A stretch of 14,811 nt of DNA, from the IMG/VR virus record IMGVR_UViG_2548877010_000018, one strand, 5' to 3'. Source of the DNA: a virus (taxonomy: Duplodnaviria > Heunggongvirae > Uroviricota > Caudoviricetes). A program made the translations under genes and the position numbers. The notes beneath the pieces are model-generated. The model was not told where the DNA came from. It saw only the letters and a list, made by a program, of their open reading frames with translations, and ran no database searches. Position 1 is the first letter of the stretch, and each line of letters starts with the position of its first letter. Shown here piece after piece: positions 1 through 10,466 of this stretch.

Positions 1-615
1 GTTATGGGACTTGCCGGTGTTCTCCGGGGTAAAAAGGTCCGTACGACCATCAGCCGGAAAGCCGTTGCCGCAGGCGACCGCGTAAACCGTCAGTTCGTGG
101 CAGAACGACCTGACCAGCTGTGGGTGGCTGATTTTACTTACGTCAGCACATGGCAGGGCTTCGTCTATGTGGCGTTTATCATTGATGTGTTTGCCGGATA
201 CATCGTGGGGTGGCGGGTCTCATCGTCTATGGAAACGACATTCGTGCTGGATGCGCTGGAGCAGGCGTTGTGGGCCCGTCGTCCGTCTGGCACCATCCAT
301 CACAGCGATAAAGGCTCTCAGTATGTGTCACTGGCCTATACGGAGCGACTAAAAGAAGCCGGATTACTGGCATCAACAGGGAGTACAGGCGACTCGTATG
401 ACAACGCGATGGCTGAGAGCATCAATGGTCTTTACAAAGCGGAGGTAATACACCGTAAGAGCTGGAAAAACCGTGCAGAAGTGGAACTGGCCACACTAAC
501 GTGGGTGGACTGGTATAACAATCGACGATTGCTGGGAAGGCTGGGCCATACTCCTCCGGCAGAAGCAGAAAAAGCTTATTATGCTTCCATCGGAAACGAT
601 GATCTGGCAGCCTGA
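1..615 (+). CDS. IS3-family transposase OrfB (DDE integrase core), 5'-truncated by window edge
   Basis: ORF 4-615 translation is identical to the C-terminal 203 aa of the 296-aa OrfB at 9199-10089. The frame is open from base 1 (V codon preceding M). Confidence 0.85.
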   Translation, partial: VMGLAGVLRGKKVRTTISRKAVAAGDRVNRQFVAERPDQLWVADFTYVSTWQGFVYVAFIIDVFAGYIVGWRVSSSMETTFVLDALEQALWARRPSGTIHHSDKGSQYVSLAYTERLKEAGLLASTGSTGDSYDNAMAESINGLYKAEVIHRKSWKNRAEVELATLTWVDWYNNRRLLGRLGHTPPAEAEKAYYASIGNDDLAA

Positions 616-657
616 GTTCACAGATAAAACACTCTCCAGGAAACCCGGGGCGGTTCA
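1..657 (+). mobile_element. IS3-family insertion sequence (IS629/IS1203-like), 3' portion only; left part lies outside the window
   Basis: Bases 1-657 encode the same protein as the tail of the complete copy at 9157-10466 in opposite orientation (identical ORF translations). Terminal sequence ...cccggggcggttca ends at 657 with the CA end typical of IS3-family elements. Confidence 0.85.
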
Positions 658-709
658 GTAAGAACCATTAGTAACGATAACCCTGCTATTAGCTCAGTGA
701 TGTAGATGG

Positions 710-2086
710 TCATACGTCAGCCCCTTGTGCATATCGTCTGCCACGCGCAGCAGGTGCATTTGATGCTGTGCAAATCTGTCTGGCTTCATCCTGGTCACAT
801 GCAACAAAGTGTCCGTTACAGAACCGCTGGTAAACTGTACCAAGCGAGCCAAAACGGTTTTTCGTCACGATGATTTCAGCAAATGGCGCGGCGCTACTGT
901 TCTCATCATATACCGCTTCCCGATAGAGCATGATGATTGAGTCTGCGTCCTGTTCAATGCTTCCTGAATCACGCAAATCTGCGTTTGTCGGGCGTTTGTT
1001 TGGTCGCTTCTCAACATCGCGCGAAAGCTGACTCAGGGAGATAACCGGTGTTTTCAGGTCTTTCGCCATCGCCTTCAGGCTTCCGGAGATGTGAGCAATT
1101 GCGAGGTCGTTGCGGTCTGCTTTCGGCTTCTCAATCAGGCCAAGATAATCCGCCATGATGAGTGACAGGTTTGGATTTTCCTGCTTATGCCGTTCTGCGA
1201 TTGAGCGTATTTCTTCGACCGATAACCGCGAAGCATCGACTACCCATACATCCAAATCTGCAAGCTGACTCATGCCGTTAGCAACACGTGCCCAGCCCTC
1301 GTCATCCATCGATGCAGGATTTCGCAGTACGCTAACCGACATCCTCCCGGCGTTGGCAATGCTTCGCTCTGCAATCTGCAATGCGCTCATTTCCATTGAG
1401 AAAATCAATACCCCGCGCCGGACGTCAGAACCAGGAATAACGCGGCTTGCCACACCTTCGGCAATCTTCAGCGCCAGTTCGGTTTTCCCCATACCAGGAC
1501 GAGCGGCGATAATCACCAGGTCTTCTGCGTTCATCCCTCCAGTGATAGCGTCAAGCTCTTCGATTCCGGTCTTCAGGGTATCTGACTCTTCTCCGTTCCT
1601 CAGACGCCTGTCAAGCGTGTCAGTGTAGTCAGTGATGATTTCCCCTAACCGTACAGGTTTAACCTCGTCACGGGGCTTTCTGATGGCTGAAAGACGCTTT
1701 ACAAGTTCATCCATCGCCTGACTCGATGCGTCGATGGTTCCGCTTTGGATTGGTTCACGCATTTCATCCATGATTTCCAGCACCAGACGGCGGTGATAGT
1801 TATCCGCGACCATTCCGGCATATCCCTTCAGGTTTGCGGCACTCGGGCAGTTTTTGCTGGTCATCAGGATTGACGTGAAATGCTCCTCTCCGCACGCCTC
1901 GGCAACCATCAGCGCATCGATTAGGTTTCTGTTTCTCGCCTGCTTGCGAATAACCTCGAAGGCTTTCCGGTAGAGCGGAATTGAAAACGCTTCCGGCTCC
2001 AGCGTTGCCAGAACGTCACTGGCGGTTGGAGTTAATCCACCAATCAGCAGGCCACCGATAACGCTAGCTTCGATATCCTGTCTCAT
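710..2086 (-). CDS. DnaB-family replicative DNA helicase (phage type)
   Basis: 458-aa ORF with Walker A ([14 protein letters not shown]) and Walker B-like ([10 protein letters not shown]) motifs and DnaB-like N-terminal region. Start overlaps the stop of the upstream O-like gene (ATGA); SD aggggga precedes the start. Confidence 0.85.
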
Positions 2087-2904
2087 GCAATCCCCCTGTC
2101 TGCAAACTTCCCTTCCCGAACTCCCGTTAACGAATCTTCCCTCAGCAGGTAATCAAAATCTGCCGTCCAGCCCGTGTCGTTGTCTCCGAAGTAAAACGGC
2201 TTGGCCTGATGCACAAACGCCCTGACATACGCTCTGAAACCGTCCACGTTTGGCGTTTTCAGTTGCGGGATAATTTTCTTCAGGCGGCGTTTTCGTTTCT
2301 CGTTGACCGCAACAGCGTGTGGAAGTCTGTCACCGACTTCGGTGTTGTAGGCGTTCAGGAAGGATTCGTAGTCGATTCGTTCTGCCTTGCGACGTTCAGG
2401 TTTAACCTGCCCATCGCCATCCCCGTTAGGGGGTAAGGGGGTATTTGTATTTATTGTCTTTTGTATATTGTCTTTTGTGTTTAGCTGACTTGGCTTATAC
2501 CCATTAGCCGACTTGGCTAATGTTTTATTAGCTGTTTTAGCTAATGTTAAGCTGTCCTGGCTAATCCACTGAGAAACCACCTTGTTCACTCCGATTTTCA
2601 CGCCATCAGCAATGAGGAATTTACGCTCAATAAGCTGGCGCTTGGCAGCGCAAACATGAGTGTGATGAATACCTGTCATGGCTGCTATCTGCGTGTTTGT
2701 GAGTCGATCCATCGGCTTATTGAATCCGTATGTCTTGCGCATGATAGCGAGCATCACCTTCAACTGCCGGACGGTTAAATCAGCCATCAGCAGACTGTCG
2801 GTAATCTCGTTAGCAACGCGCATGAAACCATCTTCGGTATCTGCCACGCGATGCTCCACGACCTCCAGTTGAGGCCTGTAATCAGCTAACTTAACGACGC
2901 CCAT
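2083..2904 (-). CDS. Replication initiator, lambda O-like / replisome organizer
   Basis: 273-aa ORF with an N-terminal winged-helix-like segment and a low-complexity linker encoded exactly over the iteron array, as in lambda O where ori sits inside the gene. SD aggagtg lies 5 nt upstream. Confidence 0.75.
2440..2564. repeat. Phage origin of replication: four iterons plus adjacent AT-rich direct repeat
   Basis: Iterons tagctgacttggctta (2482-2497), tagccgacttggctaa (2505-2520), tagctgttttagctaa (2529-2544) and taagctgtcctggctaa (2548-2564), spaced about 20-24 bp. Adjacent AT-rich tract with tattgtcttttgt repeated twice (2450-2477). Confidence 0.7.
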
Positions 2905-3052
2905 GTTTCACTCCTGCTTTGGCTAGTCTGTAAACACCAACAAGGCGCTCTGCGAACGCCCTGTTATTTGCTGCGGCTACCACTAATCCCTCAGGTGAAT
3001 CAGGGTGTCGAATCTCTTCTTTTTCCTGGTATTTCTTACGACGTTTTGTCAT
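2891..3052 (-). CDS. Hypothetical small basic protein (53 aa) between the cII-like and O-like genes
   Basis: ATG at 3052 (minus), open for 53 codons (MTKRRKKYQEKEEIRHPDSPEGLV...), stop overlaps the start of the O-like gene. Below the 60-aa ORF-track cutoff; no recognised family. Confidence 0.3.
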   Translation of the reverse strand: MTKRRKKYQEKEEIRHPDSPEGLVVAAANNRAFAERLVGVYRLAKAGVKHGRR

Positions 3053-8904: not shown

Positions 8905-9156
8905 CACCGGACATTATCCTGCAGCGTACCGGAATCGACGTGAGAGCTGTCGAACAGGGGGATGATGCATGGCACAAATTACGGCTCGGCGTCATCACCG
9001 CTTCAGAAGTTCACAACGTGATAGCAAAGCCCCGCTCAGGAAAGAAGTGGCCTGACATGAAAATGTCCTACTTCCACACCCTGCTTGCCGAGGTTTGCAC
9101 CGGTGTGGCTCCGGAAGTTAACGCTAAAGCACTGGCCTGGGGAAAACAGTACGAGA
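8901..9156 (+). pseudogene. exo: exo (lambda exonuclease) 5' fragment, interrupted by IS insertion
   Basis: [40 protein letters not shown]...ALAWGKQYE matches lambda Exo N-terminus as recalled. Reading frame then runs into the IS end at 9157; track ORF 8901-9392 is an exo/IS chimera. Confidence 0.9.
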
Positions 9157-9198
9157 TGAACCGCCCCGGGTTTCCTGGAGAGTGTTTTATCTGTGAAC

Positions 9199-10089
9199 TC
9201 AGGCTGCCAGATCATCGTTTCCGATGGAAGCATAATAAGCTTTTTCTGCTTCTGCCGGAGGAGTATGGCCCAGCCTTCCCAGCAATCGTCGATTGTTATA
9301 CCAGTCCACCCACGTTAGTGTGGCCAGTTCCACTTCTGCACGGTTTTTCCAGCTCTTACGGTGTATTACCTCCGCTTTGTAAAGACCATTGATGCTCTCA
9401 GCCATCGCGTTGTCATACGAGTCGCCTGTACTCCCTGTTGATGCCAGTAATCCGGCTTCTTTTAGTCGCTCCGTATAGGCCAGTGACACATACTGAGAGC
9501 CTTTATCGCTGTGATGGATGGTGCCAGACGGACGACGGGCCCACAACGCCTGCTCCAGCGCATCCAGCACGAATGTCGTTTCCATAGACGATGAGACCCG
9601 CCACCCCACGATGTATCCGGCAAACACATCAATGATAAACGCCACATAGACGAAGCCCTGCCATGTGCTGACGTAAGTAAAATCAGCCACCCACAGCTGG
9701 TCAGGTCGTTCTGCCACGAACTGACGGTTTACGCGGTCGCCTGCGGCAACGGCTTTCCGGCTGATGGTCGTACGGACCTTTTTACCCCGGAGAACACCGG
9801 CAAGTCCCATAACCGCCATGAGACGTGCCACTGTACATCTGGCCACCCTGATTCCTTCCCGTAACAACTGACGCCAGACTTTACGCACACCGTACACCTG
9901 ATGATTTTCATCGTATACGCGCTGTATCTCTCTCTTCAGCCAGTCGTCGTGCTGCGCACGGGCACTGCGTTTATCCGGATGATGTCGCTGTTGCTGACAA
10001 TGGTAATACGTTGACGGGGCAATATGCAGTTCGCTGCATACCGGTCCGACCCCGTACTGCTCACGCAGCTTATCCAGCAGTGGCATCAT
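9199..10089 (-). CDS. IS3-family transposase OrfB (integrase core domain)
   Basis: 296-aa ORF with a DDE-type integrase core. Start overlaps orfA stop (ATGA), and an A6 run (plus-strand tttttt 10089-10094) at the junction suits the -1 frameshift that yields OrfAB. Confidence 0.9.
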
Positions 10090-10412
10090 TTTTTCCAGAG
10101 GCGGTCGAACTCCGCCTTCGCAAAATAAGCGGAAGCCTGGCGAAGGATATCGTTACTGCGGCGCAGTTCACGATTTTCACGTTCCAGCTCTTTCAGACGC
10201 TGACGTTCAGCGCTGGTGAGCCCACCATCACCGCCCCCGGTATCCCGCTCATGCTGGCGAACCCAGACACGCAGAGTCTCCGGCGTACAGCCAATCTTTG
10301 GGGCAATGGAACAAATTGCCGCCCACTGTGAGTCATATTCATCCTGACTTTCCAGAACCATACGAATCGCCCGCTGACGGACTTCGGGGGAAAAACGAGT
10401 ATTTTTAGTCAT
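10086..10412 (-). CDS. IS3-family transposase OrfA (HTH / leucine-zipper)
   Basis: 108-aa [29 protein letters not shown]..., HTH plus coiled-coil ([21 protein letters not shown]) typical of IS3 OrfA. Confidence 0.9.
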
Positions 10413-10466
10413 CCTGTTTACCTCTTTCTCAGGGAGTTTAGTCTCCAGGATTTCCGGGGCGGTTCA

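Follow-up and report, generated by a model that had tools for sequence, protein, structure and literature searches.

Two inverted IS629 copies around the early region of an apparent Stx2c prophage, best explained as separate insertions

The stretch of DNA considered here, referred to below as the window, is a phage sequence of 14,811 nucleotides (nt; IMG/VR record IMGVR_UViG_2548877010_000018) in which two inverted copies of the insertion sequence (IS) IS629/IS1203 lie on either side of about 8.5 kb of replication, immunity and Red genes. Taken as a whole, this arrangement is very probably the result of two separate IS629 insertions in a prophage that has kept its parental gene order, with the left copy cut by the end of a contig. 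Both copies would have arrived by simple, independent copy-out-paste-in events in a native early region, one in the spacer between a helicase gene and an HNH-endonuclease gene with duplication of GTA, and the other in exo after nucleotide 256 with duplication of AGA. The inverted orientation of the pair would then be incidental, and the intervening segment would have been neither inverted nor moved as a unit.

The window corresponds to bases 2-14812 of AJMD01000026.1, a 189-kb draft contig (assembly GCA_000260475.1) from Escherichia coli NCCP15658, an O157:H7-type enterohaemorrhagic isolate from Korea. The first base of the contig is position 653 of IS629, and the window opens one base later. 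From the left IS, through the interrupted exo gene, to int and sbcB the contig is continuous and gap-free (no N). The contig was identified through the ORF at 8901-9392, in which the start of exo is fused to IS sequence. As judged from its sequence, the window is the early (helicase-to-xis) region of a Shiga toxin 2c (Stx2c)-converting lambdoid prophage (phage 2851/1717-like) next to sbcB, because the IS-free window sequence is 99.9% identical to that of phage 2851 (FM180578) with the same early-region synteny, the contig runs on into int and sbcB, and stx2c is found upstream in relatives; the toxin gene itself is outside the window, and is positioned upstream of the nin/Q region in all close relatives. 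Complete-genome searches covered 5,426 complete E. coli genomes, which is the scope of all counts of complete genomes given below. Positions 1-9156 are 100% identical to strains 7636, Z1834 and NCCP 13892, with six complete genomes matching at 100% over this length. The best matches to the whole window (H1-H12) reach 98-100% cover from joined pieces and have their IS copies at other sites.

The two insertions consist of the following features.

1-657, plus strand: partial IS629/IS1203, 3' half (IS positions 654-1310), with the orfB C-terminus at 4-615 and the right terminal inverted repeat (IRR) at 633-657.
658-660, no strand: GTA on the inner side of the left IS, one of its two target-site duplication copies, identified from the flanks in five genomes and the empty site in 644-PT8.
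8901-9156, plus strand: first 256 nt of exo, the YqaJ/lambda-exonuclease N-terminal part (YqaJ profile positions 2-60), with AGA at 9154-9156.
9157-10466, minus strand: complete IS629/IS1203, with IRR at 9157-9181, orfB at 9199-10089, orfA at 10086-10412 and the left terminal inverted repeat (IRL) at 10442-10466.
10467-10894, plus strand: remaining 425 nt of exo plus the second AGA (10467-10469), YqaJ profile positions 79-149.

An earlier note on this DNA, prepared from the sequence alone, had described an inverted partial copy (1-657) and a complete copy (9157-10466) of the same IS, and a repeat search together with the list of open reading frames (ORFs) shows all of these coordinates to be correct. 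Positions 1-657 and 9157-9813 are the arms, separated by 8499 nt, of a perfect inverted repeat (657 nt, 100% complementary) far beyond what is expected by chance. The complete copy is 1310 bp long and is bounded by 25-nt imperfect terminal inverted repeats that are 88% complementary (9157-9181 and 10442-10466) and of the TG...CA type (TGAACCGCCCCGG.../...CCGGGGCGGTTCA). Its orfA (10412 to 10086, minus strand) overlaps orfB (10089 to 9199, minus strand), with Pfam matches to HTH_Tnp_1 in orfA and to HTH_21, rve and rve_3 in orfB, and the Rfam ALIL frameshift pseudoknot RF01497 is found at 10015-10131 (121.5 bits); RefSeq labels identical copies as 'programmed frameshift'. Base for base, the element is the same as copies annotated 'IS3-like element IS1203 family transposase' at 10 RefSeq-annotated loci, and a near-identical copy in phage 2851 is annotated 'transposase for IS629'. 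By its ends, its orfA/orfB frameshift, its 3-4 bp duplication and its identity, the complete copy is IS629/IS1203 of the IS3 family, while the left copy carries the C-terminal 203 codons of orfB (4-615, plus strand).

In the case of the left insertion, a 300-nt probe across the IS/helicase junction finds a complete match in 6 of the complete genomes, namely 7636, Z1834, NCCP 13892, NCCP 13894, NCCP 13906 and 1613. Exact string matching shows that in five complete genomes (L003, L005, L006, L010 and L011) the copy at this site is a full 1310 bp, identical to the right copy of the window, and lies between the flanks ...ATATATACAGTA and GTAAGAACCATT, with the GTA duplication on both sides. The copy in 1613 differs by one indel and has the same left flank. 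Comparison with related prophages, which the earlier note had suggested as a means of finding the uninterrupted site, supplied that site as well as the target duplication of the left copy; the empty site in 644-PT8 (...ATACAGTAAGAACC) has a single GTA. The same comparison disposes of the notion that the left copy is a true fragment, as its left end is intact in the relatives (full 1310 bp, GTA/GTA) and it is the contig start that cuts the IS. The left copy is partial because the assembly broke inside the repeat, with the contig beginning at IS position 653, and its 'partial' state is an assembly artefact of the repeat without biological truncation; in NCCP15658 itself, the copy is probably complete, to judge from the full-length copies in the relatives. 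As this case illustrates, an IS that looks truncated at position 1 may simply mark where a contig ends.

The left IS is situated in an 84-bp spacer that separates the helicase gene from the HNH-endonuclease/nin genes downstream of it, and the distance from the IS end (657) to the helicase stop codon, first put at about 50 bp, measures 52 nt. Sequences 3' of the helicase gene are of two mosaic types, with a homology breakpoint at window position 682, so that the left IS is 24 bp inside the HNH-type module. This HNH-endonuclease module is present in the window, 644-PT8, 7636 and Z1835, and a different small ORF occupies the position in TW14359 and phage 2851. In FRIK2455 (L008, 2899-5211 and 5348-6657), the helicase/HNH spacer holds an ISEc8 element (IS66 family) with an IS629 beside it; this IS629 is 54 bp closer to the helicase gene and has a GTC duplication, reaching into the 3' end of the gene, and a second IS629 in the same prophage disrupts int. 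The helicase/HNH spacer is a repeated landing zone for insertion sequences.

For the right insertion, both flanks are within the window (...CAGTACGAGA before the IS and AGAACGACGCC after it), with a 3-bp AGA duplication on both sides. With the IS and a single AGA taken out, exo regains its full 681 nt (256 + 425) and aligns uninterrupted with intact exo in the relatives; when the interrupted gene is aligned to intact exo, its two parts share 3 bp at the IS. All six genomes with the left junction (6/6) have an intact exo, and no exo::IS is present anywhere in those genomes. Counting single-piece matches only, 19 complete genomes have the exo::IS junction; every one is of the TW14359/EC4115 type, and the six with the left junction are not among them. 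In a scan of IMG/VR, the left IS junction had 0 matches, and the exo junction matched one 8.5-kb contig of the TW14359 type (L013).

The state of the duplications bears directly on how the pair arose. No mismatched (exchanged) duplications are seen, the right pair being AGA/AGA and the left inner GTA being the same as the outer flank in relatives. That each IS has its own matched duplication indicates that no recombination between the copies has become fixed since insertion, as such an event would leave mismatched flanks. In addition, the outer flanks differ (GTA and AGA), and the pair therefore did not arrive as a unit, which would have generated one shared outer duplication. Between the two copies, the gene order is collinear with that of IS-free relatives, and 167 genomes and several phage records, whether they carry 0, 1 or 2 IS copies, hold the bracketed genes in this order and at this position. 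Across strains, IS629 is found at 12 or more different sites in the Stx2c prophage, each with its own 3-4 bp duplication, and eleven IS629 copies beyond the left and right sites have duplications of 3-4 bp.

These same observations count against a composite (compound) transposon, in which both IS629 copies would move as one with the intervening 8.5 kb and mobilise the immunity region together with an ORF at 5010-5531, as the earlier note had raised. The layout, with two identical IS copies around a segment, is what such an element would look like, and compound transposons of copy-out-paste-in IS elements do exist (bioRxiv 10.1101/2023.06.07.543989). However, each IS has a duplication of its own and the outer flanks are unlike (GTA in relatives versus AGA), the 8.5 kb has no context other than that of native early region in this prophage/phage family, and relatives with one or no IS copy share the same surrounding sequence. 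Furthermore, the pair has IRL at either outer end and IRR at either inner end, whereas the transposon circle of IS3-family copy-out-paste-in elements normally abuts one IRL and one IRR. The resemblance to a composite transposon thus does not extend beyond the layout, and we regard the chance that the segment is one as close to negligible.

The inverted arrangement also raises the possibility of an IS-mediated invertible segment, whereby RecA-dependent recombination between the copies would flip the 8.5-kb early region, either as a population switch or as a fixed rearrangement. The substrate is legitimate, as perfect inverted homology extends over 657 nt or more, rising to 1310 nt should the left copy be complete; the earlier note was right on this point. 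O157 genomes frequently undergo inversion between inverted repeats (PMC8743559), and IS629 is listed among the causes of inversion in O157 and Shigella in reviews cited in PMC8046923. The window itself, however, is in the parental state, with AGA/AGA matched and gene order collinear with IS-free relatives. A probe for the inverted isomer, composed of 400 nt of the HNH-side flank, the IS and 400 nt of the reverse-complemented exo N-terminus, reached a maximum of 81% cover, and one half only, in the complete genomes, none of which has both IS copies. Five other inverted IS629 pairs in the Stx2c prophage (644-PT8 type, ECP19-598 type, FRIK2455, 1613 and NCCP 13906) keep matched duplications, indicating that none of them carries a fixed inversion. 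Inversion by RecA is thus physically possible but unsupported, and an invertible segment is highly improbable as an account of the pair. In a flipped segment, transcription from pL would head for nin, Q and stx2c, and that from pR for xis and int. The more elaborate proposal that the pair acts as a flip-flop of the immunity, replication and Red block, with pL driving nin/Q/stx2c, replication uncoupled from late genes and a heritable, reversible subpopulation of altered Stx2c inducibility, is extremely improbable.

The orientation of the pair is nevertheless part of a pattern, in that all six distinct two-copy IS629 configurations in the Stx2c prophage are inverted and 0 are direct (L001, L004, L007, L008, L011 and the window). 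Six of six is a small sample, with a chance probability of roughly 0.02-0.03. The pattern is mostly not a product of ascertainment bias, because two of the configurations were recovered with an IS-free query and two with a probe blind to the second copy. The excess of inverted pairs likely reflects survivorship, as direct pairs delete the intervening DNA; selection or mechanism would be a less likely alternative.

Set against two separate insertions on a single prophage are several points. None of the 5,426 complete genomes (0/5,426) has both insertions, so that the combination of helicase/HNH spacer and exo sites is unique to NCCP15658 in that comparison, and the co-location of both on one prophage comes from a single draft contig of 2012. 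Also, neither the window nor the contig reaches the outer (IRL) half of the left copy or the flank beyond it. One explanation that would exploit these points is an assembly chimera, in which insertions in two near-identical early regions, on two prophages or in subpopulations, were merged by the assembler. The contig end inside an IS shows that repeats troubled the assembly, Stx2a phages with 99.9%-identical early regions occur in O157 (for example Stx2a_WGPS4 and phage 1717), and the combination is missing from the complete genomes. On the other hand, assembly of all three junction sequences requires reads that contain them; no gap interrupts the contig on its way from the left IS past exo::IS into int and sbcB; and, with exo::IS missing from the whole genomes of the six closest complete relatives, the lineage offers no obvious second prophage as a source. 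A chimera is accordingly very unlikely, and both copies probably lie on one prophage.

A further point of the same kind concerns the origin of the exo insertion. The window (9154-10469) and TW14359 (L002, 23474-24789) agree in the exo base at which the IS is inserted, in its orientation and in the AGA duplication. The window is without the TW14359-group alleles at 8629, 8898, 12950-12952, 13364 and 13441, and its G at 11086 is shared with TW14359 and phage 2851, the 7636 group having A. The polymorphism evidence on the origin of exo::IS thus amounts to one informative single-nucleotide polymorphism (SNP; 11086) and a homoplastic 5-bp indel. A TW14359-identical exo::IS on a 7636-like backbone may fit a short recombination tract, an old insertion lost elsewhere by precise excision, or a second hit. 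Precise excision of IS629 in O157 is promoted by IEE (PMC9943667; bioRxiv 10.1101/2023.06.07.543989). Elsewhere, in E. coli O103:H2 strain 129 (L016, 3179-4488), exo of another lambdoid prophage holds an IS629 variant whose insertion point is 22 bp upstream of that in the window; this variant has 57 mismatches in 1310 bp (95.6% identical), the same orientation and its own CTG duplication. Because this independent insertion is only 22 bp away, exo is a recurrent IS629 target, though not at the same base in this case.

Two separate insertions would also be in keeping with the known behaviour of the element, the window being a textbook case of the well-known scatter of IS629 in O157 prophages. 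IS629 is an IS3-family copy-out-paste-in element whose excision is promoted by IEE (bioRxiv 10.1101/2023.06.07.543989); 62% of the O157 copies are in prophages or prophage-like elements, at sites that are highly variable between strains, and a search by Rump et al. revealed no hotspot sequence for its insertion (PMC3271280). There is no mechanistic difference between the copies described here and other IS629/IS1203 insertions in O157:H7 prophages, which have the same 1310 bp, TG...CA ends, -1 frameshift with ALIL, 3-bp duplications and preference for prophages. The Stx2c prophage of the TW14359/EC4115 type shares the exo::IS629 but is without the left IS and has another nin-proximal sequence beside the helicase gene (the match begins at window position 682), whereas the prophage of 7636, Z1834, NCCP 13892, 13894 and 13906 and 1613, several of them Korean isolates, shares the left IS but has exo intact. 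Phage 2851, the prototype Stx2c phage, has the same order from helicase to int, but with a single IS629 in the ant region and with exo and the helicase-nin spacer uninterrupted. Compound transposons and IS-flanked invertible segments likewise have two identical IS copies, but here there is no shared outer duplication, no other location and no other orientation.

As for functional consequences, predicted from the sequence, Exo would be truncated after 85 codons, which would abolish double-stranded DNA recombination by Red, with gam and bet intact. The left IS separates the replication genes of the pR operon from the HNH/nin/Q/stx2c genes, and its transposase gene is convergent on pR transcription, just as the right IS is convergent on pL transcription. 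The left IS may dampen phage induction and, being upstream of Q and stx2c, may have polar effects on the pR operon, which N or Q antitermination may limit. Insertions of IS629 in Stx prophages are known to alter the production of toxin or phage. In FRIK1275, by comparison, transcription downstream of an stx2::IS629 insertion and phage production both persisted (PMC7430833).

With regard to strain typing, the genomes that share the left insertion (7636, Z1834, NCCP 13892/13894/13906 and 1613) represent a small lineage, for which the helicase/HNH-spacer insertion serves as a marker common to several Korean, UK and US isolates. Patterns of IS629 position are already used for O157 subtyping. The exo::IS629 of the window represents a second occurrence of that insertion, on a different prophage backbone.

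The genes bracketed by the two IS copies were named from the RefSeq annotation of 100%-identical sequence, with the cI coordinates transferred from L003 (100% identical), and this annotation confirms that replication, immunity and Red genes fill the roughly 8.5 kb. They comprise the following.

710-2086, minus strand: DnaB-like replicative helicase, at the P position (DnaB_C, 9.5e-78, plus the DnaB N-terminal domain; WP_001248388.1).
2083-2904, minus strand: O-like replication initiation protein (PF04492, Phage_rep_O).
3085-3381, minus strand: cII (PF05269).
3523-3738, minus strand: Cro-like helix-turn-helix regulator (RefSeq annotation of 100%-identical sequence).
3813-4508, plus strand: cI repressor of the LexA/S24 family (HTH_3 and Peptidase_S24).
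5010-5531, plus strand: conserved phage ORF of 173 amino acids, in the lambda rex position between cI and N (phrog_2602, 3.5e-102).
6260-6532, plus strand: N antiterminator (PF25694, N_peptide).
7453-7511, plus strand: lambda cIII thermoregulator RNA element (RF01804, 88.5 bits), upstream of and overlapping the cIII start.
7466-7630, plus strand: cIII (RefSeq annotation).
7817-8113, plus strand: gam (PF06064).
8119-8904, plus strand: bet, RecT family (RefSeq annotation of 100%-identical sequence).

A DUF2528 gene and kil are also annotated by RefSeq between the IS copies, giving the order helicase, O, cII, cro, cI, the 173-residue ORF, N, DUF2528, cIII, kil, gam, bet and the truncated exo. The ORF at 5010-5531, which had been taken for unknown cargo, is instead a conserved native phage gene, present in all Stx2c-type and related Stx2a-type early regions examined, with or without IS copies. 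It has no Pfam match and no PADLOC match, phrog_2602 being its only assignment, and from its sequence and position it is a candidate lysogen-expressed moron.

To the right of exo, a 5-bp indel (CAGGT, at 13197-13201) is present in the window, TW14359, 644-PT8 and FRIK2455, and absent from the 7636 group, phage 2851, Z1835 and ECP19-598; this distribution conflicts with that of other SNPs and suggests slippage. The ORF at 12765-13310 encodes 181 amino acids in the window (phrog_9263/phrog_631, function not assigned), and neighbouring ORFs in relatives are annotated as frameshifted or with an internal stop.

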